The translations under genes were made by a program, and so were the position numbers. The notes beneath the pieces were generated by a model that searched no databases, was not told where the DNA came from, and saw only the letters and a program-made list of their open reading frames with translations. A stretch of 64,000 nt of DNA. Source: Candidatus Saccharimonadales bacterium. Its GTDB lineage: Bacteria; Patescibacteriota; Saccharimonadia; Saccharimonadales; UBA4665. This document shows positions 12,600 through 38,963 of the stretch, piece after piece. The stretch covers positions 91,609-155,608 of the forward strand of contig DASVRP010000008.1 of the NCBI GenBank assembly GCA_036388555.1, given 5' to 3'. Every line of letters begins with the position of its first letter. Positions within the stretch are counted from its first letter, which is position 1.

Positions 12600-13157
12600 C
12601 TAGTCGACTTCCAGCTTGCCCGGCTGGTTCCCGCCGTTCGGAGCGACCTGCAGTGTCCAGTGGTGTGTGGTCTTGGGGATATCATGCGTGACAGTCTTGA
12701 TGATCCGGCCATCGAGATAGTAGCGGATCGCGGTCGGCGTCCATTCCGTCGTCGCGGTATGCCACTGGTACCAGCTGGCGCGGGTACCCAGGCTGTCAGG
12801 AGATCCGCAGTGGTTCGGGGGTTTGATATCGTCCATATCGCACGGCGTCGGATGATGGTAGACATGGATCGTGTCGTCGAAGTTCCCTTCCGGATAGTCT
12901 ATTTCACCGTCGCTCCATATATCCGAGCTTGGCCATACTATCATGGCCGTGCCCTGTCCGGCTGCGGCAGTCGCCTTGAACCTGATGCTGTAGCGGCCGT
13001 ACAGCTGCCCCAGCAGGTTGCCGATGGGCATGGCCTCGCCGGACGGGGTGGTCGGGGTTGTAGCTGGTGCCGGGAACTTCACAGCCTTGCCGGCGGACGC
13101 AGTCGTGTCACTGACGGACGTCGTACCGCTCGACAGCGTACCGGATTCTGGTTCCAC
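12600..13157 (-). CDS. GH16-like (concanavalin-fold) glycoside hydrolase; the signal-anchor region upstream is out of frame
   Basis: ExDxxE catalytic motif GEIDYPEG, and it is a paralogue of 35747-36715. The track start is GTG. The same frame stays open upstream to 13275, encoding a TM segment (PLVILAVVIGIALLGTYIL). An ATG at 13282 is offset by one base across a C4 run at 13246-13249. Confidence 0.7.
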   Translation of the reverse strand: MEPESGTLSSGTTSVSDTTASAGKAVKFPAPATTPTTPSGEAMPIGNLLGQLYGRYSIRFKATAAAGQGTAMIVWPSSDIWSDGEIDYPEGNFDDTIHVYHHPTPCDMDDIKPPNHCGSPDSLGTRASWYQWHTATTEWTPTAIRYYLDGRIIKTVTHDIPKTTHHWTLQVAPNGGNQPGKLEVD

Positions 13158-13343
13158 GGACAGGAATAGCGTTGCGGCTTCTGACGTGGTGAGTATATAC
13201 GTACCGAGTAAAGCTATACCGATGACTACTGCCAGTATAACCAGTGGGGACTTCGGAGAGGTACTGGTCGTAGTGATTTCATTCTAGCATAAGCATGACA
13301 TCGTATAGCATGACGCCGCATGCAACGGGAATGCCCATTTTAG

Positions 13344-13927
13344 TCATCGATAGATTTTAGACAGGAGAGTTATTTCTGTTGCGGACAATGCGCGGTCGTA
13401 CAAGCGTACATCGTCCAGTCTACCGTTGAACCAGTTGCCGTTCGGATCGGCGATGCCACCACCACCGATATTAAATGGATAGGCACTGCTCGGAACAGTA
13501 CCTATAGGATCCGAGTCTACCATGACACCGTTTTGGTACCACCTAGCGGTCGTGCCATCCCAGGTAAGGTATATATGCTCGTCAGGCCATTCGTCAGGCT
13601 TTTGCCGGTACCGATGTATGCGTTCGTTCCGTTGAAGTTATACGCGCTATTGGCCCTGGCCTTGCGATCTGTCGTCAGGGTTGCGTTGTACACCGTGCCG
13701 TTATTGCCCTGCGGTGTCGCGTCCTTGGCATTGCCGTCGAGCTTCCAGTGGCTGACAAGCCCGCGCTGTAGCTCGATGTCAGTGCTGGTCGCCAGGCTCC
13801 GTGGAGCACCGCCAAGCGCAGCGTAGACACCGCCGCAAAGTACACACAACGCTGTTATAGACAACCCTGCTACGAGCAACGTCCGGCTGCTAAATCTAGT
13901 TAACCTTCTTCCGGTAAGCTACCTCAT
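13344..13927 (-). pseudogene. Decayed LamG-domain secreted protein
   Basis: ATG at 13927 is followed by an in-frame TAG at codon 3 (13919-13921). The N-terminus ..YAALGGAPRSLATSTDIELQRGLVSHWKLDGNAKDATP matches the 17266-19359 product. The frame breaks near 13590 and the central part of the domain is missing. The C-terminus lies in another frame: HIYLTWDGTTARWYQNGV...NGRLDDVRLYDRALSATEITLLSKIYR* (stop at 13344-13346). Confidence 0.65.
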
Positions 13928-14064
13928 CGTCATTAAAGCATAACAAAAATGCCTAGCTCTGTCGATTACTCGCTTTGCGCAGGCTCCTGGATTGCAGCGG
14001 TGCAGTGCATCAGCTATACTACACAGTAAATAAGCGCAAGCGGAGAACTTACGGAGCGATTACG

Positions 14065-16050: not shown

Positions 16051-16086
16051 TGTATACTGATATTAAACATAAGCGGAGCTCCTGAT

Positions 16087-17196
16087 ATGGGCCAGGCAGT
16101 ATTTGGTAATAGACGAATTTTAAAGGATAAACGGTTCCGAATAGCTGTAGTTATCGTCACGGTTATCAGCATTGCCGGTATTGGCAGCTACATGGCGTTC
16201 GGATCCAAGGCTGCTGGACCGTTCGTAGCCGCGGAGACAGAAAGCGGTACGGTCTCTGCACCAGCATCCGCCATCACCGACACGACTGCCTCGGCTGGCC
16301 GAGGCGTCAAGTTCGGTGCCGCCACGCCACCGCCGACACCACCGACTCCCCCGCCAGTTGGCGTTCCGACGCAGCGGGCAGGCTGGTGGTGGTCCGACCT
16401 GGAGTCGGTACCACTCGGTGTCGTACGACCGAATACGACGGCATCTACCGAGCTCAAGAAGCACTGGACTTGGTTCGGCCAGAACGGTCAGGAGAATGAA
16501 TATGGCTACCCGGAAATGGTGACCGCCTCCAGCCAAGGCATCCCGGCGGCACCGGCCGGAGACAAAATACTGAAGCTGCATCATGCGCGTGGCGATACCG
16601 CCGTGCACCACAAACTTTTCAAAACCTTCACGACACAGAACTGGACCAATGGACAGCTCGTGCCGGACGGGCCGTCGCCTGCTGATGTATCTGGACGTTA
16701 CATATCATACATGTACGTACCGTCAGCCAAGTTCAGCATGACATCGCACGGCTGGGTCAATATGTTCCAGTACAAAGAGAACATCATCACCACGGCTGGA
16801 TTCCAGCAGGATCCGACATGGCTCGCCGGAGTGAACACCACAGGCACGCCTGGCAGATACGTCCTCAAGTTCCGCACCGCGACATATGACTTTACCCCCT
16901 ATATGGACAAATGGGTGAAATGGGAAATGCGGCTGTACCAGGGCCAGAAGATAGAATGGTACCTAAACGACCGTCTCATAGAAACCGGTCTGGAGAGCCA
17001 GCAACATGTTGGATCACGGTGTAGAGTCGGCGGCACCTATAACGGCGCGACCATCACCGACTGCAAGGGCTGGGTCTTCGGCGTCGGCAACTACACATCG
17101 AACCAGAACCTCTCCGGGTCATGCCGCTGTGAACCCGATTATAACTATATCGACACCACGGTATACGTCGACTTGACGACCCTGCTCCCTCTCTAG
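16087..17196 (+). CDS. Secreted protein with shared N-terminal cassette, Pro/Thr linker and a jelly-roll (polysaccharide-lyase/lectin-like) domain
   Basis: 369-aa ORF with a signal anchor, then AAGPFVAAETESGTVSAPASAITDTTASAGRGVKFG, then ATPPPTPPTPPP. The C-terminal domain assignment is tentative. Confidence 0.55.
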   Translation: MGQAVFGNRRILKDKRFRIAVVIVTVISIAGIGSYMAFGSKAAGPFVAAETESGTVSAPASAITDTTASAGRGVKFGAATPPPTPPTPPPVGVPTQRAGWWWSDLESVPLGVVRPNTTASTELKKHWTWFGQNGQENEYGYPEMVTASSQGIPAAPAGDKILKLHHARGDTAVHHKLFKTFTTQNWTNGQLVPDGPSPADVSGRYISYMYVPSAKFSMTSHGWVNMFQYKENIITTAGFQQDPTWLAGVNTTGTPGRYVLKFRTATYDFTPYMDKWVKWEMRLYQGQKIEWYLNDRLIETGLESQQHVGSRCRVGGTYNGATITDCKGWVFGVGNYTSNQNLSGSCRCEPDYNYIDTTVYVDLTTLLPL

Positions 17197-17265
17197 CGTT
17201 AGCGCACAAAATAATAGTGCACATGTGATGTGCAACTGTACTGTACCGGCAACAGGACTAATCCT

Positions 17266-19359
17266 CTACCGGTACAGTCTATTTAGGGCAGTCACTTCAG
17301 TTGCTGACAAAGCCCGATTATATATCCGTATATCGTCCAGCTGACCGCTATACCATATGCTCCCTGCCGCCCTTTCATTACCGAATATCGTGTAGCCGAC
17401 CGTGCCGGTACCAACGGCGGTCGTATTGGGTGAAACGGCCACATTATCTAAGTATAAATTGTTTGTTGTACCGTCGTATGTATAGGCGAAATGATGCCAG
17501 CTATTCGTCGCAGTAAACGCGGTTTGTATAATCGATCCTACACTACAACGGTACACCGCAAACTTATTCGTATCAACGACGACCGCTAATCCAGCAGTAC
17601 ATGTACCAGTGTCGCTCAAGGCCATGAGTACTTGAATACCTGACGTCTTTGTTGTATTGAACCAGCCCGTGACCGTCTTTGCACCGTTGACCGCCGGGAT
17701 ATTATTATTGGACTGCGCGAGGATGTAAGCGTTTGTGCCATTAAAGCTATACGCGCTATTCAGTCTCCCCTTCCTGTCCGTCGTCAGCGTCGCTGCCGTC
17801 ACCAGACCGTTATTCCCCTGCGGCGTGCTGTCCTTGGCATTCCCGTTCATCGGCCAGTCGCCGACGAGGCCTTTTTGGAGGTCGCTGAGCTGCACATTTG
17901 CATTGTAGGCGGTAGCCTGGGCGGCGACTTCTGGCGCAGTCAGGGCGCGGTTGTAAATCCTGACTTCATCTATGGAACCGGCGAACTTGTAATCCGCACA
18001 ACTAGCCGAACCAGTTACTTCGTCGCCAAAACATACACCTGACGTATTGGTATTTATCGCCCCACTGAAGGTGTTGGTAGCGACTTGTTGCCCGTTTACA
18101 TATAGCCGGGCAATCGTTCCGTCATAGGTAGCTGTTATATTCGCCCAGCTGCCGCTGGTCAGGACGCTACGGCTGACTTGAATTACCTGATACCCAATAC
18201 CGGCGATTGAAACATCGAAGCACAGGTTACCATTCAGGCAATCGCCATACGCTGCTCCACTATTATTCACATACAGCGACCAGCCACCCCCGTCTTCTGT
18301 ATTCGATAGTATACTCGGGAAACCTCCGGCAGCAACATTCGTGAATTTAGCCCACACTCCTACTGATATGGCGCTTGTGGGTTTGTACGCAGTACTGTGT
18401 GGGATGACGATGCTGCTGGTCGTGCCATTAAAGCTGTATGCACTATTCGCCGCTCCTTTCCTGTCGGTCGTCAGACTGGCGGAATTGGCGGTACCGTTCG
18501 CTCCATTCGGCGTGGCGTCCTTGACATTACCGTCGAGTTTCCAGTGTCCGACCAGGCCGTTTTCACCGGCCGCAGCACGGAGGCCGGGGTCGTACTGGTC
18601 GAAGAGTGCTTTAGCTTCGGCAGCGTTGAGGGCGCGGTTGTAGACGCGGGCGTCATCGAGCTGGCCTGCATACCAAAAAACAGAACTTCCTCCGGAACCG
18701 ATGCCGAGGACATTGGTGTATGGATATATTGATGCTGCAGTAAGACTGCCCGCAAGCGTACCGTCTAGATACAAGCGCATCGCACCAGCCGCGTACGTCG
18801 CAGTTAGCAGATGCCATTTTGTAGTATCAGTAGCTGCAGTGTCGATATAGGTTCCCGCGGAACAATCGGAATTGAATAACTGGAATCTATATTCCGTCGA
18901 TACACCCGTCGTGATACCGCCGTTACACCCGTCCTTTCCTAATAATACGTTCTCGGAACCCTGTGATCCGCCTTTTGCCCATATGGACAACGACCACTCC
19001 GCTCCATAATTGTTGCTTGTCATAACCTTCGGATCCATATTAGCGACGGTCATGTACTGCGAAGAACCATTAAATGATTTTGCGCCGGCAGCCATGGTCT
19101 TGCGGTCAGCAACGTCGGCTGGCGCGCCGTTCAGCGTACCGTCGCGGGCAAATGGACTACTGTCCTTGGCATTGCCGTCCAGCTTCCAATGACCGATCAA
19201 GCCTTTTTGGAGTTCTACATCAGTAGCGACAACTGCATTCTTCGGCGCGCCGCCGAGCGCGGCATACGTAATGGGCGCCAGCAGTGCCAGGCCGACGGCG
19301 CAGACGATCAGCACTACTACTGCTTTCTTCGTGAGCCGACGCCTGCGTGTGAACACCAT
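17266..19359 (-). CDS. Secreted protein with three tandem LamG (laminin-G-3 / concanavalin-like) domains
   Basis: 697-aa ORF. Each domain opens with L(I/V)G(H/D)W(K/P)(L/M)(D/N)GN(A/V)KD and closes with GQLDD(A/I)R(V/I)YNRAL or GSIDEVRIYNRAL. Confidence 0.75.
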   Translation of the reverse strand: MVFTRRRRLTKKAVVVLIVCAVGLALLAPITYAALGGAPKNAVVATDVELQKGLIGHWKLDGNAKDSSPFARDGTLNGAPADVADRKTMAAGAKSFNGSSQYMTVANMDPKVMTSNNYGAEWSLSIWAKGGSQGSENVLLGKDGCNGGITTGVSTEYRFQLFNSDCSAGTYIDTAATDTTKWHLLTATYAAGAMRLYLDGTLAGSLTAASIYPYTNVLGIGSGGSSVFWYAGQLDDARVYNRALNAAEAKALFDQYDPGLRAAAGENGLVGHWKLDGNVKDATPNGANGTANSASLTTDRKGAANSAYSFNGTTSSIVIPHSTAYKPTSAISVGVWAKFTNVAAGGFPSILSNTEDGGGWSLYVNNSGAAYGDCLNGNLCFDVSIAGIGYQVIQVSRSVLTSGSWANITATYDGTIARLYVNGQQVATNTFSGAINTNTSGVCFGDEVTGSASCADYKFAGSIDEVRIYNRALTAPEVAAQATAYNANVQLSDLQKGLVGDWPMNGNAKDSTPQGNNGLVTAATLTTDRKGRLNSAYSFNGTNAYILAQSNNNIPAVNGAKTVTGWFNTTKTSGIQVLMALSDTGTCTAGLAVVVDTNKFAVYRCSVGSIIQTAFTATNSWHHFAYTYDGTTNNLYLDNVAVSPNTTAVGTGTVGYTIFGNERAAGSIWYSGQLDDIRIYNRALSATEVTALNRLYR

Positions 19360-19448
19360 ATGTATCTATAAGCATAACAGAAATATAGCTTTTTTAACAG
19401 GTAGGGTACGTCTGTTGCTCTGTCTGCCACAAACGCAACGTGTGCGGT

Positions 19449-20921
19449 CTAGGGAGTGACTTTATAGATATGATAGCTGTACTCGGCCTCGAAACTGTCA
19501 TTGAAGGTACCGATCGATACCGGTACTGTGCGGTTCTCATGCAGTGCGCTTACTTGTGCCGTTTTTAGTCCGGCCGGCAGGCTGAACGTCTTGGTACCAG
19601 TCGAGCCCTTGTCGCCCATCGCAAATATATAGGCGGAGCCGTTGTGCCATTTCAGCATGGCATCTATGGCGCTGCCGAAGGAATACTGGTAGGATTGTGT
19701 ATTCAGCACCGGTGCGAGCTCTTTGATGTAACCGTTGATCTTCGTCACGCTGGCTTTGGGAGCGTTGGCGCAGTCCAGCAGTCCGTCATTCGACGGGCAG
19801 GTACCGCTGAAATTATGCTTGAAATAGGTAATGCCGCGGGCTTCGTGAATCAATGAGCTCATGACAGCACCTTCGACCTGCGGTCCGGTGATGGCTCGGC
19901 CGTTCTGGAACGGTGAGCCCGTTTCAACGAATGACCATATCATCTGGCGTTTGCCATCGAGTGCGTCCAGCTTGCGTACTCGGTCTACGACGGCTCCGTA
20001 ATTTGCCGCCCGGCGGCATTCGGCCTGTGTCAGGTCTTTCAATCCGGTATAGATACTGACCGGGCCGCTGCCCTGGATCATGGTCGGACCCTGGGCGGCC
20101 GTGCAGACATCACCGTCGGTGTACCAGTAAATATCATCAGACATGATGGTCGTATAGCCGTTTAAGAATTGGGCGAATTGGGCGTCGCTTTCCCACCCCG
20201 GGAATATACCTTTGCCAAAATTAGCGTGTACGGCGTAACCGCCGCTTGACGGCACCCGGGTCAGTATCTTGGCCAGCGCGGTGTAGCCGCACTTGCCGCC
20301 CTTATCAACGGCAGGAGTGCAGACGGTAGGCCAAGGCTGGCCCTCGTTCCACTGGTCATTGCCGGGCCCGGCCCACATATCAACTTCATCTTCCAGGTGC
20401 ATGCCGATAGTCTCGGTTCCAGTACCGCTGGATCCGGCATCCGCTACCGCGAACATCCCATTTGACCGCAGGAGCGGCAAATTTGCGTTTGATTCCATCT
20501 TGACCGATGTGTTGATGCCGAGCGCCTTATAGCCATTTATATCAGTTTGTGAATTGGCGCGCATATACCAGGCACTGATGGGGATAAAGGCCGGATTTGT
20601 CCATCCGGCAGCCTTTGTTTTCGGGAAGTTGTCATAGTAAGCACTGCCCCCCTCCCAAGGAATCAGCGGCAAACTACTCAGCGGATTGACACTGTTGGTG
20701 GCTGTACCGAATTTCACAGCCGCTCCTGCCGAAGCCGTATTGTCGGTAATCTTTGATGCCCCGCTCGTCACAGTACCAGATTCGGATTCTGCCGTCACAA
20801 ATGGCGTAGCTGCCCGCGACGAGACAAGCAGCAGTGTACCTATCAAGGCTATGCCGGCAACTGCCAGTAGAAGTACGGTCTGTGTACGAAGCAGGCGGGA
20901 GACAAGCGAATGGAATGACAT
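19449..20921 (-). CDS. Secreted protein with shared N-terminal cassette; catalytic domain unassigned (possibly a glycoside hydrolase)
   Basis: The likely start is MSFHSLVSRLL at 20921, preceded by GAGGTG. The cassette reads AATPFVTAESESGTVTSGASKITDNTASAGAAVKFG. The track ORF extends to 20990. Confidence 0.6.
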   Translation of the reverse strand: MSFHSLVSRLLRTQTVLLLAVAGIALIGTLLLVSSRAATPFVTAESESGTVTSGASKITDNTASAGAAVKFGTATNSVNPLSSLPLIPWEGGSAYYDNFPKTKAAGWTNPAFIPISAWYMRANSQTDINGYKALGINTSVKMESNANLPLLRSNGMFAVADAGSSGTGTETIGMHLEDEVDMWAGPGNDQWNEGQPWPTVCTPAVDKGGKCGYTALAKILTRVPSSGGYAVHANFGKGIFPGWESDAQFAQFLNGYTTIMSDDIYWYTDGDVCTAAQGPTMIQGSGPVSIYTGLKDLTQAECRRAANYGAVVDRVRKLDALDGKRQMIWSFVETGSPFQNGRAITGPQVEGAVMSSLIHEARGITYFKHNFSGTCPSNDGLLDCANAPKASVTKINGYIKELAPVLNTQSYQYSFGSAIDAMLKWHNGSAYIFAMGDKGSTGTKTFSLPAGLKTAQVSALHENRTVPVSIGTFNDSFEAEYSYHIYKVTP

Positions 20922-21054
20922 GAACACACCTCGAATAGTTGTTATGGTTGAATTATATACCACAGGCATCGGAATCGAAACTACACCCATATTCGTTCCC
21001 CGCCCTGCCGTCAGAAGTCCGTACCCTTTGACCCGATTGACGAGATGCGTATTC

Positions 21055-21468
21055 TTATAACGCCCGGACTTCTACCCGGTCTACAAGCATGACTGCAGGA
21101 GTTGTAGCAGGCTGCTGCTGGCCGCCGGCACCGCCGACGGCCGCAGTACCGTTATATGCGCAGGCGCTCCAGTCTCCCCATTTCGCTGTGTCCGGTAGGG
21201 TGCCTGCCGATCCGTTGAAGTCATCTTCAAACGGTATTGCGCCAGAGATTGCGGAACCGAACTTTACCGAAGCATTTCCAGATACCCCTGAAGTTTCACC
21301 GGTCACGACAGCACCAGTTTTCGTACCATTCTCTACTTCTAACGCCAAATATGACGTTGCGGCCTTACCGCCCTGCAGTAACCAGACGAATGTATGTACA
21401 AAGTACATTAAAAGTATTACAATGTACGTATGAGTCAAATACCCGTCACCATCAAGATAGATGCTCAA
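21055..21468 (-). pseudogene. Remnant of a GH16-like secreted protein: cassette plus the first and last strands only, no catalytic motif
   Basis: Cassette AATSYLALEVENGTKTGAVVTGETSGVSGNASVKFG is followed by FEDDFNGSAGTLPDTAKWGDW (compare IFTDDFTAN..VSAKWGAYPDGW in 35747-36715). The sequence then jumps to a C-terminal ..VMLVDRVEVRAL. There is no ExDxxE motif and no charged signal N-region. The 5' end overlaps the antitoxin start. Confidence 0.5.
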
Positions 21469-22084: not shown

Positions 22085-23668
22085 CTACCGCGCGCTGCTG
22101 GTAAAATGATACGTCAGATCCTGCACGACCGGCCGGGCTACAACCGGAAACGGCGAGACAGCGCTAGCCGTGGTGCTACCGGAGCGCGATGATACTGCCG
22201 ATACCGTACCTGTCGCCAGCGGGAATGTCTTAGTGTAGACACCGGCAGGTGCCTCGTAGGTATAGGTATTGCCGCCGACTTTGGTAGTGATAGTAGCGGC
22301 GGCCGTCAGGAACGACAGTACTTCTACGGTATCACGCGGCGGCTGGCCGGAATTGACCTTCATCAGCTGCGTCTGCGGGCCGGTCGGTAGCGCCGCGTGG
22401 GGCTGGATGCGGTGATTGACGTACAATACGTCCTTGTTTATCTGCGGCGGACTGCCCTGCTTCATCCACGTCAGGTAGTACGAGCTGATGTCCAGCGGAC
22501 TCCAGCCGATGTGCGTCGACGGTGATACCTGGGCGTTTTCCGAGTAATCATTCCAGGTGGCGATCTGTACCCATTCGGCGGACGAAATGGCGGTGTTCCA
22601 GGTCTGACGCAGGTTTTCGGTGTTATTGGCCTCCCAGAAGGTGCTGTGTATCGGCCGGTTGTCCTGGAGTGATACGGCCTGCATCCAGATCTTGCCACGG
22701 TTGTGGGCGTCGGTAATGTCGCCCATCAGTGTCGCCGGGTTGCTGGCCGGGCTGCGGTTTCCCCAGGTAGAGGCGCCGTAGCTGAACGGCATGAAGGCGG
22801 CGGCATTGGCGCCGTAATTCAGGAAGCACGGTACAAAGGCGATGTTGACGCCGTAGGTGTTTTTCATGATGTTCAGCCAGTTTTGCCACCAGGCCGCCGG
22901 CAGCACCTCCGGCATGAAGGCCGAGAAGACAACCCGTCCGTCGGGCAGCTTGAAGAGGTTCTTGTTGTATTTCGGGTCATTTGTCAGACTGGCCATGCTG
23001 GCAGCTACCTCGCTGGCTACCGCACCGGCACCCAGGCTGGCACCGTCGGGCATCAGCATGATCTTGAAGTTGGGATCCTGCAGCGGTGCTGCCTCCAGTA
23101 GTTGCTTGGTACGGTCCATGCACTGGCCGGTCAGGCACAGCACATCGAGCGCGAAGCCGTCCAGACCGGCCTCGGTTGCCCGCTTCACTTCGGTGCGCAT
23201 ATCATCAATCTCCCAGGTTGGTGACGAACTGACCGGACGCGTCAGCGGCCGCTCGCGCAGCATACCGCCGTACGCCGCAAACTTGCCGCCCTCGCCGTTC
23301 GGATTCAGATAGCCAGTGGCGTAATAATCCTGGTCAGCCGGTTTGTTATCGAATGATATCGGGTACGGCACGAAGTAGTGGGCAAACACCTTCTTGGAAG
23401 ATGCCTTCAGCGTCGCCTGCGGCGGCAAATCAAACGGCAGCACGCCAGTAGATGCCCGGCTGCCGAATTTCACGGCGGCGCCACCGGCTGCCGTCGCGTC
23501 TGCCAGGCTGCTCGCCGGTGCGACGATACTGCCCTTTTCAGATTCCGCTGTGACGAATGGCGTGGCGGCCTGCGAGCTGCGCAGCAGTATGACGCCGGCC
23601 ATAGACACCATAGACATTACTGCCAGCAAGCTGGTCGCACGAACTACTTTAGCCCGGTTCATAGCCAC
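22085..23668 (-). CDS. Glycoside hydrolase family 71 (alpha-1,3-glucanase-like) with shared N-terminal cassette
   Basis: 527-aa ORF. The cassette is AATPFVTAESEKGSIVAPASSLADATAAGGAAVKFG. KKVFAHYFVPYP and ATEAGLDGFALDV resemble the GH71 motifs VFAHFMVG and GIDGFALNI. Confidence 0.65.
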   Translation of the reverse strand: MAMNRAKVVRATSLLAVMSMVSMAGVILLRSSQAATPFVTAESEKGSIVAPASSLADATAAGGAAVKFGSRASTGVLPFDLPPQATLKASSKKVFAHYFVPYPISFDNKPADQDYYATGYLNPNGEGGKFAAYGGMLRERPLTRPVSSSPTWEIDDMRTEVKRATEAGLDGFALDVLCLTGQCMDRTKQLLEAAPLQDPNFKIMLMPDGASLGAGAVASEVAASMASLTNDPKYNKNLFKLPDGRVVFSAFMPEVLPAAWWQNWLNIMKNTYGVNIAFVPCFLNYGANAAAFMPFSYGASTWGNRSPASNPATLMGDITDAHNRGKIWMQAVSLQDNRPIHSTFWEANNTENLRQTWNTAISSAEWVQIATWNDYSENAQVSPSTHIGWSPLDISSYYLTWMKQGSPPQINKDVLYVNHRIQPHAALPTGPQTQLMKVNSGQPPRDTVEVLSFLTAAATITTKVGGNTYTYEAPAGVYTKTFPLATGTVSAVSSRSGSTTASAVSPFPVVARPVVQDLTYHFTSSAR

Positions 23669-26326: not shown

Positions 26327-28285
26327 TCAATCTTTGACGAGGAACAGTCCGTCCCTGTCCGCCAGGGTGACCGTCGATATCACTGCCTGTCCGTTATTGG
26401 TCACCGCGTCCTGCCTGCCCTGGAAACGGTGGTATCCCGCGCCTATCGTCACCGTCTGTGCGCCGTTGCCCTTAGGGTTGACTAGTATCATGCCGCCGGC
26501 GAAGCGGCGGCGGTAGACGCCGTTCTGCCAGGCCGTCAGCTGCGGCCCGTCGGTTGCGGTGCCGAGCCACTTGGTCGTGCTGCTGCCGGCCAGGTCGAAT
26601 TCGTCGTACCACAGCACTTCATTGTAATTACTTGATACCGAGAAGTAGCCATCATCCAACAGCGAACTGGCAAAGGCGTAACGCAATGTCTGGTAATCCG
26701 TCGGCGCACCCCCGAGATAGGCGTCGAATACGCAGGCTTTGGGCGCCACGAGATTTGCTGTAGCCGTGCGATACCAGCCCATCATCAGATTCCAGCCGCC
26801 CCAGGTTTCAACTGACCAGCTCTCCCCGATGACATGCTCCAGGAAGGCGGCACCAACCAGGTTTTTATATTGTGTGAACGGTCCGGTGGCGCCGCCCGCA
26901 AAGACGCTGCCGTCGAGGTCATTATCCGCATTGATCATGATGATTTTGGACGGCTGCAGTGCCAGGGCGGTATCATAGTAGGCCCGCTGCCCATCACGCC
27001 ACAAGTCCTGTACGGCCGTTGAATTCGCATTGTCATTTACGCCGTCGCGGTCCCAGTCGTCATCGATACGGGGTTTGGCGAAGTTGTTGTCGGTGTACCA
27101 GATATCCCAGCCGGCGGTGCTGATAAGCAGGCTGTTGTCGCGCTTGGCCAGCCATTGCGGCCAGCGGTCACCATTAGCATCCGGCGTGGTCTGCAGTGTC
27201 AGATTGGTATCATGCACGGGATACGTTCCGCCTGACCAGTTGGTGCGCTGTCCGGCAGCATTATATCCCCACCAGTCACCGACGCCGCCCGGCCCGACTT
27301 CAGACGAAAGCTTGGCTCGCAGATCCTGGGTGGCGGTGTCATTCGTATCTGTCATCACTTCGGTCATGACCGTATAGTTGCCGAGCAGGATATCAGGATT
27401 ATACGATTTTATCTCTGTCACAACCTGCGCCGGACTTTTGCCGCCCTGTGACCACATGTTGTAGCAACCGAGAATTGCCAGATCGAGCTGGGCGATCTGT
27501 TGTTGGTAAGCCGTCTGATGGTAGTTGTGCGGGTCGCCGATGAGCATGCCACCGAGCCTCGGGAATTCCGTCAACGAACTGCTGCCGGGAGACGTCAGCG
27601 GATAGCCTGCGCTGCCTATCCAGGCACTGCCGTTCCAGATACGGGCATTGGCCGCAAACCAGGAGGAGCCGTTCCATATCCTGATGGCCGCACCCGGCAG
27701 ACTGACGGCGACTGCGGCTGCCGCGTTGAGCTCGGTGAGCGTCAGTACGCTGTTCCAGAGGCGCAGATTATCAACCCGGCCGCTCATCGGCTGGCTGGTG
27801 CTGCCGCAGACCTGCACGGTCAGGTCGAAACGTGGCACGGCCGTCGCGGCAGCATGGGTCTTGGTAGCGGTCAATGACCCGTTCGTATAAATCTTCGTCT
27901 GGTTAAGCGCGTTATCGTGCGTTACCGCAATGTTGTACCAGGTGCCGGTTGCCAGCGTCGCGCCAACCGCTTCGGGGTCAGATCCGCCCAGATAGGCGTC
28001 GAACACCCCCGAGCCGTTGAACTCCATATAGAAGCTGCCGACCTGGAGAATGGATGACCAGCCGCTCAGCGAGCTAATATAGACGTCGAATTGCAGTGAC
28101 CAGGTGCTGAGCACAGTTCCGATTGGGCCAGTAAACCTCTGGACGGCAGCCGCGCCTGCCGTACCAGTACCCCAGGCCGCTTCCCAGTTGACGGGTGTCA
28201 GGCTATAGCCGCCGACCTCCGATTTAGCGGTCGGGCCGGTGCCTTCATTAAAACTGAATGCCGAGAGTGGGGTCGGAAATGCCAT
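26327..28285 (-). CDS. LamG-like N-terminal domain + TIM-barrel-like putative glycoside hydrolase domain; no signal peptide
   Basis: 652-aa ORF. The N-terminal domain ends GRVDNLRLWNSVLTLTEL. The C-terminal ~420 aa are paralogous to 28931-30430 (PRLGGMLIGDPHNY..QQQIAQLDLAILG..). Confidence 0.6.
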   Translation of the reverse strand: MAFPTPLSAFSFNEGTGPTAKSEVGGYSLTPVNWEAAWGTGTAGAAAVQRFTGPIGTVLSTWSLQFDVYISSLSGWSSILQVGSFYMEFNGSGVFDAYLGGSDPEAVGATLATGTWYNIAVTHDNALNQTKIYTNGSLTATKTHAAATAVPRFDLTVQVCGSTSQPMSGRVDNLRLWNSVLTLTELNAAAAVAVSLPGAAIRIWNGSSWFAANARIWNGSAWIGSAGYPLTSPGSSSLTEFPRLGGMLIGDPHNYHQTAYQQQIAQLDLAILGCYNMWSQGGKSPAQVVTEIKSYNPDILLGNYTVMTEVMTDTNDTATQDLRAKLSSEVGPGGVGDWWGYNAAGQRTNWSGGTYPVHDTNLTLQTTPDANGDRWPQWLAKRDNSLLISTAGWDIWYTDNNFAKPRIDDDWDRDGVNDNANSTAVQDLWRDGQRAYYDTALALQPSKIIMINADNDLDGSVFAGGATGPFTQYKNLVGAAFLEHVIGESWSVETWGGWNLMMGWYRTATANLVAPKACVFDAYLGGAPTDYQTLRYAFASSLLDDGYFSVSSNYNEVLWYDEFDLAGSSTTKWLGTATDGPQLTAWQNGVYRRRFAGGMILVNPKGNGAQTVTIGAGYHRFQGRQDAVTNNGQAVISTVTLADRDGLFLVKD

Positions 28286-28930: not shown

Positions 28931-30430
28931 TCAATTTTTTACCAGGAACAGCGCGTCGCGGTCTGCCAGCGTGACCGTGGACGTTACCGGCTGTCCGTTA
29001 TTGGTCACCGCGTCCTGCCTGCCCTGGAAACGGTGGTATCCCGGGCCGACAGTCACCGTTCTGGCGCCATTGCCTTTGGGATTGACCAGCACGATGCCGT
29101 TGGCGAACTGCCGTTTGTAGACGCCGCTCTGCCAGGCTGCGGTCTGGGGACCATCGACGGCCGCCCCCAGCCATTTGGTCGTGCTGGTGCCGGCCAGGTC
29201 GAATTCGTCATACCACGGCACGCTGCCGTAGTCGGATGATGCTGAGAAATAGCCGTTATTGAGCAGCGACGCCCCGAAGGCGTAGCGCAATGTCTTGTAA
29301 TCCGTCATCTTATCACCCATATAGACATCGAAGATCGCCAGCTGCGGCGCTGCCAGGTTCTGGAATATTTTGTGATACCAGCCCATCATCGTACTCCAGC
29401 CGCCCCAGGTCTCAGACGACCAATCCTTGCCGACGGCATGTTCCATGAACGCTCCGCCTGCCATGCCTTTGTACTGCGTGTACGGATTGGCTTCGGATGG
29501 AAACACGCTGCCGTCGAGGTCGCTGTCGGCATTGACCATCAGCATCTTGCCCGGCTGCAGGAATTTCGCTGTTGTATAGTAGGCCCGCTGCCCATCGCGC
29601 CAGAGATTACGAATCGTCTCATTGTCGGCACTGTCATTGGTGCCGTTGCGGTCCCAGTCGCCATTGGAGCGCGGCCGCCAGAAGTTGTTATCGCTGTACC
29701 ATATATCCCAGTTGGCTTTGCTGATGATATTGGTGTTGTCGCGCTTGGCCATCCACTGCGGAAAGCGGTCGCCATTACTGTCGGGAGTGGTCTGCAAGGT
29801 CAGGTTGGTATCATTGACCGGGTAGGTACCGCCGGACCAGTTCATCTTCTGCCCGGCCGCATTATATCCCCACCAGTCACCGACGCCGTTCGGGCCCTTT
29901 TCGGCGTTCAGTTTGGCGCGCAGGTCGGCCGTCGCCGAGTCGCTGGTACTGGTATATACTTCGGTCATCAGCGTGTAGTTCCCGAGCAAGATCTTCGGGT
30001 TACGGGCTTTGATCTCATTGACGGCCTGGGCCGGCGTCTTACCGCCGCTATTCCACAAATTGTACATACCCAGGATAGCCAGGTCCAGCTTTGCAATCTG
30101 TTGCTGGTAGGATGCCTGGTCATAGCCATGCCCGCCGATCAGCATGCCGGCCAGTCGCGGATACGCTGCCGACGACACCGGAGGCGTGGGTGCTGTGATG
30201 AATTTGACCGCTGAGCTGCCTGAAGCCGTCGAGTCAGTCACCCTCGTGGCCGTGCCGCTGGTGGTTCCGGACTCGGCTTCTGCCGACACTGATGCCGTCG
30301 CGGCCTGGGAACGCTGGAAGATGTATGTGCCGGCTAGCGCGCAGACTGCGACCACCACGACCGGTATGGCAATCCGGCGTAACGTATTCATAGTAACTTT
30401 CACGCTGACTCCCGTTTCACGAATATACAC
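28931..30430 (-). CDS. Secreted TIM-barrel-like putative glycoside hydrolase with shared N-terminal cassette
   Basis: 499-aa ORF; the likely start is MNTLRRIAIP at 30391. The cassette is AATASVSAEAESGTTSGTATRVTDSTASGSSAVKF. The remainder is paralogous to the C-terminal part of 26327-28285. Confidence 0.6.
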   Translation of the reverse strand: MYIRETGVSVKVTMNTLRRIAIPVVVVAVCALAGTYIFQRSQAATASVSAEAESGTTSGTATRVTDSTASGSSAVKFITAPTPPVSSAAYPRLAGMLIGGHGYDQASYQQQIAKLDLAILGMYNLWNSGGKTPAQAVNEIKARNPKILLGNYTLMTEVYTSTSDSATADLRAKLNAEKGPNGVGDWWGYNAAGQKMNWSGGTYPVNDTNLTLQTTPDSNGDRFPQWMAKRDNTNIISKANWDIWYSDNNFWRPRSNGDWDRNGTNDSADNETIRNLWRDGQRAYYTTAKFLQPGKMLMVNADSDLDGSVFPSEANPYTQYKGMAGGAFMEHAVGKDWSSETWGGWSTMMGWYHKIFQNLAAPQLAIFDVYMGDKMTDYKTLRYAFGASLLNNGYFSASSDYGSVPWYDEFDLAGTSTTKWLGAAVDGPQTAAWQSGVYKRQFANGIVLVNPKGNGARTVTVGPGYHRFQGRQDAVTNNGQPVTSTVTLADRDALFLVKN

Positions 30431-30492
30431 TCATTGTACTGCTTGTGGTTAGGACGTCAATGCACTTCACATATGCCCCCTAGGCTATTGCG

Positions 30493-31740
30493 CTACGGTG
30501 CGATCGGCGGTGCCAGCGGCTGACGCGGCGTTCCGCCGCCACCGATACTGGTGGCGGTATTATTATTGACGACATGCAGCGACGAGAACAGTTTCTGCAG
30601 ATCCTTTGACCACGGTGACTGGTCAGCCACCCTCTGCACGAACGGCACGCCGAAATCGGCCTGGAACTGCTGCGTGAAGATCCCGTCAGGGCTGACCTCC
30701 GTCGATATGGCATACGACGGACTGCCGCCGGAATCGACGATGTAGGCACCGTAGTTCTGCATGGTCCAGGCCAGCTGGCGGCCTGGCTCTGACAGCAGGC
30801 CCATGGTGTTGATGTTCACTGATGCCGGCAATGCCAGCAATGCGCCCATCTTCATGGCGGTATTCTGGTTATTATTCTCGGAGCCGTAGCTACTCTCCGC
30901 CCCGGTGTCAGCGCCGGGCGCCGGCCAGCGGAAACAGTCAGTGCGCACGGCGCAGTTATAGAGATCGCGTGGCGAGTAGACATTTATCTTGATGGCGTGC
31001 TTGACGCCCTGCTGGCCGGAGCGCATCTCACCAATCCGGATCGAGCCGCCAAGAGCCGACATCTTGGAGCCGCCGTGGGCACCACGGATGCCGTCGCCGT
31101 AGAGGTCAGTGTCCGGATAGGTCACGAGGCTGGTGGCAATACCGCCAGCGCTGCAGCGCGTGAACGGCTGCATGTGGGCGATCGTCCGCCCGTCAGGGCG
31201 CAGGACCGCCGCCGCGTAATTCTTGTTGCGGTTATTCGGTACGACAAAATTTGACGGTATCGGTACGGTCGTCAGCGTCGTGCTCTGCCCCGGGCAGCGG
31301 TCGGCGCCGGACCAGCCGGAGCTGTTGTACCTGACGGCGGTCAGCGGCGCCGTCGGCTTCAGGATGATGACATCCTCGTCAGCATCTGACAGCAGTGCCC
31401 ATATGTATCCGTCGCCCGGCGAAAATGGCAGATTGGCATGTACATACTGTGCCCCACTGCCGATCGGCATATTCCAGATACTGTTGCTGGCAAACGGCTG
31501 TTTCAGCGGATCACGCGCACCGCTGGCGGCTGCCGCAAAGCCGACAGCTTTACCGCCGGCAGCATTTGCATCATTGACGATTGAGGCCGGTGCAGTGATA
31601 GTGCCATGTTCCGGCTCGGCACTGATTGCCGTGGTTGCAGCATGCGACTGCAGCAGATAGGCACCGCCCATCATGCAGACGATTGCAACCACCACCCATC
31701 TGAGGCCGTGCGAACGCTTTCCCTTACCTGTACTTCTCAT
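30493..31740 (-). CDS. Secreted hypothetical protein with shared N-terminal cassette
   Basis: 415-aa ORF with a signal anchor, then AATTAISAEPEHGTITAPASIVNDANAAGGKAVGF. I do not recognise the domain that follows. Confidence 0.55.
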   Translation of the reverse strand: MRSTGKGKRSHGLRWVVVAIVCMMGGAYLLQSHAATTAISAEPEHGTITAPASIVNDANAAGGKAVGFAAAASGARDPLKQPFASNSIWNMPIGSGAQYVHANLPFSPGDGYIWALLSDADEDVIILKPTAPLTAVRYNSSGWSGADRCPGQSTTLTTVPIPSNFVVPNNRNKNYAAAVLRPDGRTIAHMQPFTRCSAGGIATSLVTYPDTDLYGDGIRGAHGGSKMSALGGSIRIGEMRSGQQGVKHAIKINVYSPRDLYNCAVRTDCFRWPAPGADTGAESSYGSENNNQNTAMKMGALLALPASVNINTMGLLSEPGRQLAWTMQNYGAYIVDSGGSPSYAISTEVSPDGIFTQQFQADFGVPFVQRVADQSPWSKDLQKLFSSLHVVNNNTATSIGGGGTPRQPLAPPIAP

Positions 31741-31800
31741 TACGCTTAAGTCTATAGGAGCCTGCGTACAGCTGCAACCGGTTACTCAGCCTAGGCGAGC

Positions 31801-35471: not shown

Positions 35472-35746
35472 AAAAAGTCACCTCATAGTGAATGTCAGAA
35501 CCCACGGCTGCCGTTATTGGCTATTGGGGCGGTACCATCTGACTTCCAAAAGAGATGACTGCTAAACGGGGTCAATCTTTGGCGCTTACTTGTCGCTGTG
35601 ACGGGCTCTCCCGGCGGGTTCTAGTTTCGCGGCGGTCCGCTGGCGGACGACCAAGATTTCTTCCCGCTGCTCGTGGTTGATAGCCACTTCGCTGATGCGC
35701 CGCCGGAGCGACCATCGCACGCAATACCGATAGCATAGCATATCAG

Positions 35747-36715
35747 CTACAGCTTCGACCAGATGGCTATCCAGTCGAGCTGCACGTTCCCGGCTACGCT
35801 GTTCGCCGGCACGGTGCCGTCCAGCGCCGTCTCGGTCTGCAACACCAGGTGCATCGGGGTATTGGGTATACGGCTGGTGCTGGTGCCGATCGTGGTTCCG
35901 TCCAGGATGAATCTCACTGACGATGGCCCCCACTCTATGATGGCGGTATGCCAGCTGGGATAGGTTGCGGATGTCGTGTAGCCGTCCTGGTCACCGCCCG
36001 AGGTGCCATTCTGGCGGTGCATGTATGCCTCGATAGTGCCGTTAAGGTTGCCTTCCGGAAAGTCTATTTCGCCGTCACGCGGCCAGGTCTCGCTATCCGG
36101 CCAGAGCAGCCAGGCTGTCTTGTAGCCAACGAGCGGATCGGCCCGGAAGCGCATGGCATAGCGGCCGTAGAGCTGTCCGTTGGGGATTCCAGGCAACTTC
36201 GGTACCGGCGCCGATACCATGTGTACGCCGTTTTCGGTATGGAGATACATATTCAGCAGCCCGTTCTGCTGACTGATGACTTTTGAGGGATAATAGGTGC
36301 CATTCCTGCTGGTATCTTTCCAGCCGTCTGGATACGCACCCCATTTGGCGCTGACAGCACCTGGAAAGCTGCCGACCGGTACGTTCGCGGTAAAGTCGTC
36401 GGTAAATATCTGCTTCCAGCCAGGCAGATCCCCGATCGGCATCGGCTGTCCGGACGGATTGGTGACTGGCGCGGCAAACCGCACGCCTGCCCCGCCCGAA
36501 GCCTGGCTGTCAGCCTGCGACGCGGCCGGACCGCTCAATGCGCCGCGCTCCGGCTCGGCGCTGATATAGGGCGTGGCAGCTTGTGAAACGAACCGTGCCG
36601 CCAGCCCGACGATGCTGCAGCACAGTATGACCAGGATTATGGTAATGTGTTTTGATCGTATATATTTCCGGCGTTGCATAGCACGTCTCCAAGCGCGGGG
36701 CGGCACCTGCATCAT
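35747..36715 (-). CDS. GH16-like glycoside hydrolase with shared N-terminal cassette
   Basis: 322-aa ORF. The cassette is AATPYISAEPERGALSGPAASQADSQASGGAGVRF. The catalytic motif is GEIDFPEG. YGRYAMRFRAD parallels YGRYSIRFKAT of 12600-13157. Confidence 0.7.
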   Translation of the reverse strand: MMQVPPRAWRRAMQRRKYIRSKHITIILVILCCSIVGLAARFVSQAATPYISAEPERGALSGPAASQADSQASGGAGVRFAAPVTNPSGQPMPIGDLPGWKQIFTDDFTANVPVGSFPGAVSAKWGAYPDGWKDTSRNGTYYPSKVISQQNGLLNMYLHTENGVHMVSAPVPKLPGIPNGQLYGRYAMRFRADPLVGYKTAWLLWPDSETWPRDGEIDFPEGNLNGTIEAYMHRQNGTSGGDQDGYTTSATYPSWHTAIIEWGPSSVRFILDGTTIGTSTSRIPNTPMHLVLQTETALDGTVPANSVAGNVQLDWIAIWSKL

Positions 36716-36984
36716 CAGCGCCCGATAGTATATGAAGCTACCTCATCGAGCAATGGCAACTGCGCTCCCTGCCAGAGATGGAGCAGCGTGCCGTCGATAG
36801 CCATGACCATGATAGCAGGATAGCTCATGATATCGTACAGGCTTGCCAGGGCTATGCCATCGCGCTCATCGACATTCAGGACTTCCAGCTTGGAGCCGGT
36901 GTGGCGGACCTGGTAGTCATGTATAAACGTTTCGACAGACCGGGCATGCTCTGAATGCGGGCGATATAGGATAACCACTTTCAT
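36715..36984 (-). CDS. Small hypothetical protein (thioredoxin-fold-like, no CxxC)
   Basis: MKVVILYRPHSEHARSVETFIHDY... I place the start at the internal ATG at 36984. The fold call is tentative. Confidence 0.4.
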   Translation of the reverse strand: MKVVILYRPHSEHARSVETFIHDYQVRHTGSKLEVLNVDERDGIALASLYDIMSYPAIMVMAIDGTLLHLWQGAQLPLLDEVASYTIGR

Positions 36985-37048
36985 GCGCCCAGTGTAGCAC
37001 AAATAACCATAACCGTACTATACGAATACACTGCTTTGGGATACTGTA

Positions 37049-37876
37049 ATGATAATGCCTGTGCCGCGACCGATGCCGAACCTGCGATACCTCACGACAG
37101 TGCTGGCGGTCTGCCTGCTGGTAGCGTTCGCGGCAGCTGCAAAGCCTGTTCCGCACGAGCCACAAGCTCCATCGCTAACACACCTATCGGCTGCCACACT
37201 GGCGAATCCGCTGGATAGAGCACATAACCTACCGGGAGCCCTAGCCGCCCGCCAGTACAACTTGCTAAATGGCCGGGTTACGCTGCGTGACGACGGCATC
37301 TGGCAGCCCGCCCGCGGTGGTTACTGGTCGATGCAGCAGCGGTCATGCGGCCGCGGTATCATCCCGGACATGGACTGCCTGGACACCCGGATGTTTGTCT
37401 TGCAGCACGAACCGTATCGGAACCCAGACCAGTTCCAGGTCAATGTGACAGTGTTCAAGCGCGGCAGCACTCCGGTGCGCGACTGGACGATTGCGAATAT
37501 CGGACTGTACCCGACTGCCGAGCGGCTACATGACTACCACGTCGGCAGCTACCCGGCCTTCAGCTACGAAGCGCCGCTGGGCCCGGACGAGAAGCGGTTA
37601 GTCCGTACGATCGTCTGGCAGGACGTGGCCGTCGTCGTCCGGGCTACATTATTCAATCAACGCCATAATCATTACAGTGGCACTGGCAATTACCTGCAGT
37701 ACGGCGGTGAGATCGACCGGCTGACGCAGTCGATTGTCATCCGTGATGGCCGCATGCATGGCGACACGGACACCGGTACGCACATTGACGCTTATGGTAA
37801 TAACAGATACAATGAAGCTACTTTAGACCACAAACCCGTGAGCCGGCCCGATTATGAAGAGTTCCACACCCATTAA
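37049..37876 (+). CDS. Hypothetical secreted protein
   Basis: 275-aa ORF with a signal peptide (LRYLTTVLAVCLLVAFAAAAKP). Confidence 0.5.
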   Translation: MIMPVPRPMPNLRYLTTVLAVCLLVAFAAAAKPVPHEPQAPSLTHLSAATLANPLDRAHNLPGALAARQYNLLNGRVTLRDDGIWQPARGGYWSMQQRSCGRGIIPDMDCLDTRMFVLQHEPYRNPDQFQVNVTVFKRGSTPVRDWTIANIGLYPTAERLHDYHVGSYPAFSYEAPLGPDEKRLVRTIVWQDVAVVVRATLFNQRHNHYSGTGNYLQYGGEIDRLTQSIVIRDGRMHGDTDTGTHIDAYGNNRYNEATLDHKPVSRPDYEEFHTH

Positions 37877-38963
37877 GCGACCCCTTCAGGGGAACAAGCA
37901 GCGGATCTTACTGCTGGTACTCGCCCTGTTCGTCGCTGCCGGCAGCCTGGCTCTGCTGAGCCTGCGGGCCGCCGGGCCGTTCGTAGCTGTCGAGCCGGAA
38001 TCCGGCAGCCGGACGGCTCCGGCGGCCGGGATACAAGATACGACCGCCTCCGGCGGTCAAGCAGTCAGATTTGGTCCTGCCAGCAGCAGTACCAAATTCA
38101 CGCTGGTCGTCATGCCCGATACCCAGTTTACCGCTCAGTCGTGGCCGGCCGATTTCATGAACATGACCGCCTGGATACGTGACAAAGCCGCTGAGCTCAA
38201 TATCGCGTATGTACTGCATGAGGGCGACGTCCAGGAAAATCCCATCCCGCCGACCTATCAATATTTCGAGAATGCCCGCCGTGCCATGAACCAGCTCGAC
38301 GGCCATGTGCCGTACGTCGTCGCCATCGGCAACCATGATTTCGACGCCTGGTACACCGGTCAGAATGAAGGCATCGCCGCCGACCGCAGGGCGACCGTGT
38401 TCAACCGCTATTTCCCCGTCTCAAAGTTCCAGAACTGGCCGACATTCGGCAGCAGCCACCCGGCCGGCACGAACGATAATAGTTTCCATAAATTCAGAGC
38501 AGGCGGCACCGACTGGGGCATCGTCACACTCAAATTCAAGCCGACCGCCGCTGAGCTGGCCTGGGCCAACAGCATCGTCAGTGCTAATCCGACCCGCCGC
38601 TTCATTATCCTCACCCACGAATACCTCTTCGGCAACGGCACGCGGACGCCAGCCGGTACCCAGATGTGGAATGAGCTGGTGAGCAAATATAAGAACGTCC
38701 AGTTCGTCTTCTCGGGCCACGTCTATCCGACCAGCGCCCGCCGTGTCGACGCTGGCGTCAATGGCAACCAGGTACACCAGCTGCTCATCGATTACCAGGC
38801 ATACAGCGTCCGCGAGCCCAACAGCTACATCAGGCTCATGACATTCGATACCGCCGCCCGGACGATCACCGTCAAAAGCTATTCGCCGCCGTTCAACAAA
38901 TACATGACCGGCGCGGCCGATGACTTCGTGCTGACCGGTGTACCGTTTGGACCCGTGCAGTAG
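37854..38963 (+). CDS. Secreted calcineurin-like metallophosphoesterase with shared N-terminal cassette
   Basis: 369-aa ORF. The cassette is AAGPFVAVEPESGSRTAPAAGIQDTTASGGQAVRFG. Metallophosphatase motifs are VVMPDTQ, HEGDV, IGNHD, LTHE and SGHV. Confidence 0.7.
   Translation: MKSSTPIKRPLQGNKQRILLLVLALFVAAGSLALLSLRAAGPFVAVEPESGSRTAPAAGIQDTTASGGQAVRFGPASSSTKFTLVVMPDTQFTAQSWPADFMNMTAWIRDKAAELNIAYVLHEGDVQENPIPPTYQYFENARRAMNQLDGHVPYVVAIGNHDFDAWYTGQNEGIAADRRATVFNRYFPVSKFQNWPTFGSSHPAGTNDNSFHKFRAGGTDWGIVTLKFKPTAAELAWANSIVSANPTRRFIILTHEYLFGNGTRTPAGTQMWNELVSKYKNVQFVFSGHVYPTSARRVDAGVNGNQVHQLLIDYQAYSVREPNSYIRLMTFDTAARTITVKSYSPPFNKYMTGAADDFVLTGVPFGPVQ

Follow-up and report, generated by a model that had tools for sequence, protein, structure and literature searches.

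Introduction

Saccharibacteria and other candidate phyla radiation (CPR) bacteria are tiny, mostly uncultured epibionts, and their surface organization is largely unknown. Several described systems come close to the one reported here. In cohesin-dockerin systems, a short conserved tag, separated by a flexible linker from many unrelated carbohydrate-active enzymes, meets a complementary receptor on non-catalytic multi-domain surface proteins, with many tags per receptor. In the donor-strand complementation of chaperone-usher and type V pili, an incomplete beta-sandwich is filled after export by the N-terminal strand(s) of another polypeptide. The Bacteroidetes lipoprotein export signal and the YSIRK, KxYKxGKxW, and SipW-cognate signals are lineage-specific conserved sequences at the signal-peptide cleavage site of an exported subset of proteins. 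Finally, carbohydrate-binding modules (CBMs) of families CBM35 and CBM6 (e.g., 2WZ8, 2VZP, and 7BYX; 7EHG) have the hallmark start x-E-A/P-E-x-G ... D-x-x-A-S-G-G-x-x-V and the remainder G-x-Y-x-hydrophobic-W-x-R ... N-S-x-x-L-x-hydrophobic-D-G ... W-x-W ... L-x-x-G-x-H ... L-D-R. In this work, we analyzed a stretch of 64,000 nucleotides from a Candidatus Saccharimonadales bacterium (contig DASVRP010000008.1, positions 91,609 to 155,608; "the window"), in which a cassette of about 35 residues recurs nine times, each time directly behind an N-terminal leader. Profile comparisons identify the cassette as the detached N-terminal third (strands 1 to 3) of a CBM35-like beta-jelly-roll, the rest of which, here called the body, occurs in separate proteins encoded near cassette genes in related genomes. 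We propose, with about even confidence, that the cassette completes this split fold and thereby docks enzymes onto scaffold proteins.

The cassette has the hallmark start of CBM35 and CBM6 and the body has their remainder, and complete domains with both halves match 2WZ8 from end to end. The window proteins differ from these modules in having ~35 of the ~130 residues, after which a linker and a catalytic domain follow. It is implausible that the cassette binds sugar on its own. The layout resembles that of cohesin-dockerin systems in its short tag, flexible linker, and many unrelated enzymes, and also in its putative receptor, carried by non-catalytic multi-domain proteins and serving many tags; some of these receptor proteins themselves end in dockerins. 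It differs in that the cassette is N-terminal and has no duplicated ~22-residue Ca2+-binding repeat, no cohesin serves as receptor, a single split fold would be completed where a cohesin and a dockerin are two autonomous folds, and most of the scaffolds carry one receptor module only. With donor-strand complementation it would share the filling of an incomplete beta-sandwich after export, but three jelly-roll CBM strands (~35 residues) stand in place of one strand of an immunoglobulin (Ig)-like pilin, the donors are enzymes and not polymerizing subunits, and no chaperone or usher is evident. Like the lineage-specific export signals, the cassette lies at the cleavage site of an exported subset of proteins; unlike them, it is 35 residues long instead of a few, shares homology with a portion of a structural domain, and occurs behind two types of leader. 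The system belongs to neither the cohesin-dockerin nor the donor-strand family, and it is related to CBM35 and CBM6 although the complete module that defines them is absent. To our knowledge, no naturally split CBM has been described as a docking pair, and a full-text literature search returned no description of the cassette module or of a split CBM.

Cassette and body as consecutive parts of a CBM35-like fold

The cassette is ~35 to 40 residues long and was treated as a 40-column block, to which all column numbers refer. Its nine copies in the window align ungapped, with the consensus S-x-A-A-T-P-x-V-S-x-E-P-E-x-G-T-x-S-x-x-A-x-x-V-x-D-x-T-A-S-G-G-x-A-V-K-F-G and the invariant columns A3, A4, E11, E13, G15, V35, and F37.

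The cassette alone aligned with residues 19 to 39 of CBM35 2WZ8, and its direct PDB matches all fell at CBM35 N termini, while the body alone aligned with residues 40 to 125 of CBM35 2VZP. A profile of the complete domains matched residues 12 to 135 of 2WZ8 (E = 1.4e-4) and the xanthan-binding module 7EHG (E = 8e-5) and, more weakly, CBM6/35 modules present in agarase, CITase, and cellulase B. In the six complete domains of one protein (P0083), the cassette profile matched the first ~30 residues, with independent E values (iE) of 4e-10 to 3e-5, and the body-only profile matched right after the cassette part (iE of 2e-9 to 2e-7), as in the domain with the cassette at residues 219 to 244 and the body at residues 256 to 354. 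Shuffled cassette profiles, used as a control, reached a best iE of 0.08. The body profile also matched, at 229 to 319, the complete CBM35-like domain encoded at another locus (L047; iE of 4e-7). Cassette and body thus match consecutive, non-overlapping parts of one domain.

The original prediction held that the cassette resembles only the start of CBM6/CBM35 modules and is far too short for a full CBM. The resemblance was confirmed through the complete intermediate domains, which set its extent at strands 1 to 3. A complete CBM that had been overlooked is ruled out, since a CBM6/35 Pfam match was found in none of 107 full-length carriers and a match to the body profile in none of 148 N-terminal cassette proteins. 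None of the Pfam CBM models matches the module in any of its forms.

Conservation in the cassette falls on exactly the residues that the complete fold conserves. Among them are E11, E13, and D26, and in the body a (L/V)-D-(R/K) motif has an invariant Asp. In CBM6/35 modules, the E-x-E of strand 1 and an Asp of the last strand form a structural Ca2+ site.

Searching the loci with the complete domain of L047 revealed ~15 body-only open reading frames (ORFs) from 14 metagenome-assembled genomes (MAGs), all within 8-kb blocks around cassette genes. They cover positions ~30-50 to 144 of the 147 positions of the profile. The body module comprises ~110 residues with four conserved Cys and the motif G-T-Y-R-V-W-S-R ... 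N-N-S-Y-x-L-E-I-D-G ... W-T-W-V ... L-x-x-G-x-H-T-x-K-L ... V-x-L-D-R-V. In most of these proteins, the leader is followed by the body, by Big_7 and/or fn3 repeats, and by a C-terminal element, which is a dockerin, a carboxypeptidase-regulatory-like domain, CBM96, or a membrane helix; several end in Dockerin_1.

Structure prediction returned the isolated beta-hairpin that had been envisaged for the cassette, behind an unstructured first third. In the AlphaFold2 (AF2) model of the full-length GH16 protein encoded at 35747-36715 (mean predicted local distance difference test score, pLDDT, of 90), a helix at residues 6 to 40 is followed by a hairpin at residues 64 to 68 and 76 to 80 and then by the GH16 domain. 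Within the cassette of this protein, columns 1 to 20 are coil (pLDDT of ~55), and columns 21 to 25 and 33 to 37 form the hairpin (pLDDT of 80 to 85). The same picture of hairpin and coil was obtained for the cassette alone with a 64-sequence alignment, so that the best-conserved segment, V-S-x-E-P-E-x-G-T, is modeled as coil both in isolation and in the full-length protein. Bulky hydrophobic residues are conserved at columns 7, 8, 10, 17, 24, 35, and 37, and the cassette has no Cys and ~1.7 aromatic residues in 35. The models indicate that the cassette cannot be a fold by itself. Foldseek gave no match to the 40-residue cassette model.

Linkage of cassette and body genes

With a DNA pattern for the body, 98 independent metagenome loci were recovered, all verified with a hidden Markov model (HMM), and cassette genes were present in 42 of them. 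Among the loci of at least 6 kb, 32 of 54 contained cassette genes, at 0.87 cassettes per 10 kb. The cassette nearest to a body module lies at a median distance of 1.7 kb. Of 43 such pairs, 32 are within 2 kb and 41 share a strand, and in 28 cases the cassette gene is immediately downstream of the body gene. The 39 enzymes neighboring body genes form 18 unrelated clusters, and identity among the body proteins is ~42%, which shows that this is not one repeated gene pair.

Fused forms were also observed. In two proteins (L179 and L141), the leader is followed by S-R-A-A-T, the cassette, a Ser-rich linker of 11 to 16 residues, and a Cys-bracketed body; compared with the unsplit domains, the extra residues lie exactly at the boundary between cassette and body. 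Two further ORFs combine an N-terminal cassette with a distant body-only module, located at residues 906 to 1023 in L137 (2495-6487, plus strand) and at residues 507 to 625 in L175 (2200-5760, minus strand). For these two proteins, self-docking or chain formation is conceivable.

Leader peptides and the cassette junction

The leaders that precede the cassette have a basic n-region (net charge of +4.6) and a hydrophobic h-region, and the junction satisfies the von Heijne -3/-1 rule. A Gly is found seven residues before column 1, inside the hydrophobic helix, in 124 of 134 proteins, and columns 1 to 3 are occupied by S/T/I/V, then H/R/K/Q, and then A (99%). The cassette pattern given in the original prediction is present in all nine window copies, but conservation begins earlier than described there, with columns 1 to 3 and the upstream Gly. 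Judged from sequence, signal peptidase I probably cuts after S/T-x-A, between A3 and A4. An uncleaved signal anchor may be the alternative, given the long helix in the AF2 model.

Ten of the 134 leaders (~7%) are instead twin-arginine translocation (Tat)-like, with the motif [ST]-R-[RK]-x-F-L and a weakly hydrophobic core, and are followed by the same junction and cassette. These are the leaders of P0013, P0017, P0023, P0032, P0058, P0085, P0096, P0106, P0109, and P0116, which read M-[ST]-R-[RK]-E-F-L and have charged residues close to the cleavage site. The presence of the cassette behind both Sec-like and Tat-like leaders indicates that it is a feature of the mature N terminus and not of one homologous signal peptide.

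For seven cassette proteins, no N-terminal NCBIfam match to signals of the YSIRK, KxYKxGKxW, SipW-cognate, LPXTG, or PEP-CTERM type was obtained, and the translations of cassette proteins show no C-terminal anchor motif. Neither Dockerin_1 nor any other Pfam model matched in or near the cassette, which is therefore not a dockerin.

Distribution of the cassette

When 1.84 billion representative proteins were searched exhaustively with the profile, the result was at least 901 protein clusters with the cassette (E <= 1e-3). In 148 of the 150 top matches, the cassette is located at residues ~30 to 90, immediately behind the leader, in agreement with the earlier proposal that it is a dedicated tag on secreted proteins. 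With a degenerate DNA pattern and one genome per GTDB species, at least 112 loci were found, 106 of which were HMM-verified and together hold 154 cassettes. Among the matches listed, nearly all verified loci come from MAGs of Candidatus Saccharibacteria/Saccharimonadia, and the 6 unverified loci are chance matches outside the CPR. No Pfam model matches the full proteins in the cassette region or the cassette alone (E up to 10), and no NCBIfam model matches it either; the cassette family is new to the curated databases searched. One ORF from a MAG labeled Actinomycetota (L005, 916-3276, plus strand, 787 residues) has a cassette-like segment, TVQLEAEAGLVGGGLTVEGDGSASGGAYVMFSGP, behind its signal peptide and a body module at its C terminus; this is either a mis-binned contig or a split outside Saccharibacteria.

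Proposed docking mechanism and alternative explanations

Building on the homology of tag and body to consecutive halves of one fold, their fused forms, the adjacency of their genes, and the leader with its cleavage-site pattern, we propose the following mechanism. Each enzyme would be exported by a Sec-type or, in a minority of cases, Tat-like leader, and signal peptidase I would cut after S/T-x-A to leave the mature N terminus A-T-P-x-V-S-x-E-P-E-x-G-T.... A flexible Pro/Thr/Gly/Ser linker would keep this tag apart from the catalytic domain. The tag would then insert into a body-only module, that is, the remaining ~110 residues of the fold, possibly with formation of the Ca2+ site. This module would stand at the mature N terminus of separate scaffold-like proteins, whose Ig/Fn3 spacers are followed at the C terminus by a dockerin, carboxypeptidase-regulatory-like domain, or membrane anchor. 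Because the cassette would pack against the body as strands 1 to 3 do in the intact fold, with the body supplied in trans, the enzymes would be tethered to adaptors, and completion of the fold would hold many polysaccharide-degrading enzymes at the cell surface. The order of tag, linker, and catalytic domain is the usual layout of binding modules, and we count it in favor of docking. That Saccharibacteria split a CBM35-like fold into a 35-residue tag on dozens of enzymes per genome and a scaffold body, and that the two reassemble outside the cell, has in our judgment an even chance of being correct; it is just as evenly balanced whether this constitutes a categorically new docking mechanism.

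Several results weigh against docking. The window with its nine cassettes contains no body module (best E of 0.17), nor do the ~7 to 10 kb past each of its ends, and in the sampled loci cassette genes outnumber body genes by ~10 to 1. The direct cassette-CBM35 and body-CBM35 matches are individually non-significant (E of 0.06 to 0.5), and the link to CBM35 reaches significance only via the complete intermediate domains. The body DNA pattern covered only about a third of the known body variants, and the figures on cassette-body proximity lack calibration against the genome-wide density of cassette genes; adjacent genes may, as we assume, often be co-oriented in these genomes anyway. In addition, the body-only module with its four conserved Cys may be stable and functional alone.

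The absence of a body in the window and the excess of cassettes would also suit an autonomous mini-module, in which the hairpin and the acidic E-x-E/D residues bind a Ca2+-bridged cell-wall polymer, a host glycan, or peptidoglycan and thereby hold the enzymes at the surface, the bodies being unrelated truncated CBMs. The flexible linker after the cassette is typical of such modules, the proteins that carry it are mostly carbohydrate-active enzymes, and the hairpin is predicted with a pLDDT of ~80 to 85. However, a segment without Cys, with ~1.7 aromatic residues and with its best-conserved part unstructured, is unlike the known small CBMs, and the fused forms, the adjacency of body and cassette genes, and the match of the conserved residues to the complete fold are left unexplained. 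We consider this explanation unlikely. An export or processing element, such as a signal-peptide extension or a pro-peptide that is removed by a dedicated peptidase or by quality control and has no role in the mature protein, is quite improbable. Such an element would account for conservation that reaches into the leader (124 of 134 proteins have the Gly at -7, and S/T-x-A occupies -3 to -1), for a module that is always right behind the leader, and for the restriction to one lineage. Yet the same cassette follows Sec-like and Tat-like leaders, the NCBIfam sorting-signal models do not match, no second cleavage motif is apparent past the cassette, where the linkers are variable, and a pro-peptide has no need of the residues of CBM35 strands 1 to 3. 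The original prediction had also raised a co-occurring dedicated peptidase or sortase, but no peptidase or sortase-like gene recurs beside the cassette genes of the window and the genome loci, where housekeeping genes are the only recurrent neighbors.

The homology to the start of a CBM35-like domain, the clear exchange of catalytic domains behind the cassette, and the clustering of cassette genes in the genome could in principle reflect an evolutionary leftover of an N-terminal CBM35 or a DNA handle for domain swapping that is maintained by conversion. We regard this as very improbable indeed, since near-invariant residues persist across at least 901 clusters and the copy in the probable pseudogene at 21055-21468 is the most divergent, as expected if the intact copies are under selection. 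Among the nine copies, mean pairwise identity is 47% for protein and 53% for DNA, only 35% of the identical residues are encoded by the same codon, and synonymous sites are scrambled. This points to purifying selection on the peptide with no recent conversion, and the recombination handle that had been put forward is thereby rejected at the DNA level. In an evolutionary sense the same idea holds, as catalytic domains have moved behind a common leader and cassette in the GH16 and GHL15 cases described below.

The tag marks a large part of the secreted polysaccharide-degrading enzymes of Saccharibacteria and provides a simple sequence rule for finding this set. If the proposed docking is true, it would represent a new natural attachment of enzymes to scaffolds, with one fold split over two polypeptides and reassembled after export. 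It would amount to a cellulosome-like display unrelated to cohesin-dockerin, by which ultra-small epibionts arm their surface in a modular way with newly acquired hydrolases, and would account for the way in which catalytic domains gained by horizontal transfer come into use, with a leader and tag grafted onto them. The two modules may also offer a small, genetically encodable tag-receptor pair.

Nine cassette copies in the window

All nine cassettes reported in the original prediction were found between 12.6 and 39 kb, within a few bases of their predicted positions. An HMM built from the nine copies, run against the six-frame translation of the window, returned exactly those nine (E of 1e-16 to 4e-21), the next best match having E = 0.25, and this recurrence is far beyond chance. 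Each copy shows the same layout, in which the cassette follows an N-terminal leader (a single hydrophobic helix) and is joined by a Pro/Thr/Gly/Ser linker to an unrelated catalytic domain. The coordinates that open each line below are those of the 40-codon frame of the copy, and the last line gives a paralog used for comparison.

13065-13184, minus strand: copy A, in the open frame 12603-13283, with leader and GH16 remnant
16204-16323, plus strand: copy B, in ORF 16087-17196, with Pro/Thr linker and a downstream domain without Pfam match
20700-20819, minus strand: copy C, in ORF 19449-20990 (probably starting at 20921), with a downstream domain of 420 residues without Pfam match
21250-21369, minus strand: copy D, in the short ORF 21055-21468 (137 residues), the most divergent cassette
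23456-23575, minus strand: copy E, in ORF 22085-23668, with downstream GH71
30191-30310, minus strand: copy F, in ORF 28931-30430 (probably starting at 30391), with downstream GHL15 TIM-barrel
31528-31647, minus strand: copy G, in ORF 30493-31740, with a downstream domain without Pfam match
36467-36586, minus strand: copy H, in ORF 35747-36715, with a short linker and then GH16
37962-38081, plus strand: copy I (cassette HMM E of 4e-21), in ORF 37854-38963, with leader, cassette, and metallophosphoesterase
26327-28285, minus strand: not a cassette gene; GHL15 paralog with LamG in place of leader and cassette

The downstream domains had been named essentially correctly, being one GH16 with two remnants, GH71, a GHL15 TIM-barrel, a metallophosphoesterase, and three domains without Pfam match. 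The frame of copy A has no ATG, GTG, or TTG start and its GH16 is short by ~80 internal residues; it is a probable pseudogene. The ORF of copy D has 30% identity with the intact GH16 protein in the N-terminal part of the latter and is a probable GH16 remnant or pseudogene. The protein with copy H is identical to an NCBI GH16 entry from Candidatus Saccharimonadales. Copy I has the sequence LRAAGPFVAVEPESGSRTAPAAGIQDTTASGGQAVRFGPA, and the identical protein is present on several metagenome contigs.

Tagged enzymes and exchange of modules

Across the 107 full-length carriers, which are mostly carbohydrate-active enzymes, 35 Pfam families are represented, including beta-helix proteins, GH16, GH26, GH71, GH43, GH99, GH114, polysaccharide/alginate lyases, CE4 deacetylase, esterases, and phosphoesterases. 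Clustering of the regions downstream of the cassette in 159 ORFs from the window and the genome loci gave 72 unrelated clusters, and the linker and catalytic domain begin 3 to 15 residues past the cassette. Spherulin4-like proteins also appear in the census of tagged enzymes. The tagged families (GH16, GH71 alpha-1,3-glucanase, GH114, Spherulin4-like, CE4, GH26, and lyases) attack glucans of the fungal cell wall, polymers of the galactosaminogalactan type, and exopolysaccharides of biofilms, which hints at the diet of these soil Saccharibacteria.

The GH16 catalytic domain begins with P-S-G-Q-P-M-P-I-G-D-L-P-G-W in all lineages. From residue ~86 onward, the intact window GH16 (35747-36715) shows 65 to 74% identity to Corallococcus (Myxococcota), Solirubrobacterales, and Chloroflexota enzymes, which have other N termini without the cassette, whereas the other cassette-bearing GH16s, from Saccharibacteria, are more distant from it (54 to 59% identity). 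These identities suggest that the window GH16 was acquired recently by horizontal transfer and that leader and cassette were then added. The two adjacent GHL15 paralogs on the minus strand, 28931-30430 and 26327-28285, are 69% identical over 422 residues from the end of the linker onward. The latter has an N-terminal LamG (Laminin_G_3) and is without an obvious signal peptide, so that the pair, with a cassette in one and LamG in the other, indicates that the N-terminal module is exchangeable. Taken from these comparisons, leader and cassette appear as a unit grafted onto diverse catalytic domains.

Genomic context of the window

The window also holds ftsZ, ftsA, ribonucleotide reductase, and ileS, which identify it as chromosomal, and tRNA and Rfam scans of the window gave no match. 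Its first ~11.2 kb (GH2, aldose epimerase, and kinases) is found at the end of the Joint Genome Institute (JGI) contig Ga0334938_000032 and the remainder on Ga0334938_000047. Near this switch, at ~11.2 kb, the G+C content rises from 0.47-0.53 to 0.55-0.59; this point marks either a join made in assembly or a genuine boundary in composition that directly precedes the island of cassette genes.

Two proteins of the window, encoded on the minus strand at 24853-26022 and 50708-52702, carry type I dockerin repeats (Dockerin_1) at their ends, which in the first of them accompany an esterase-like and an F5/8 type C domain. In a cultured Saccharibacterium, an envelope protein with a dockerin domain is essential (PMC10633639).

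The island further encodes large secreted proteins without the cassette, all on the minus strand: 17266-19359 with a triple Laminin_G_3, 40125-44036 (1303 residues) with a CBM4_9 module, and 45383-46780 with LamG. Their presence indicates that the tag marks a subset of the secretome, composed mostly of enzymes.

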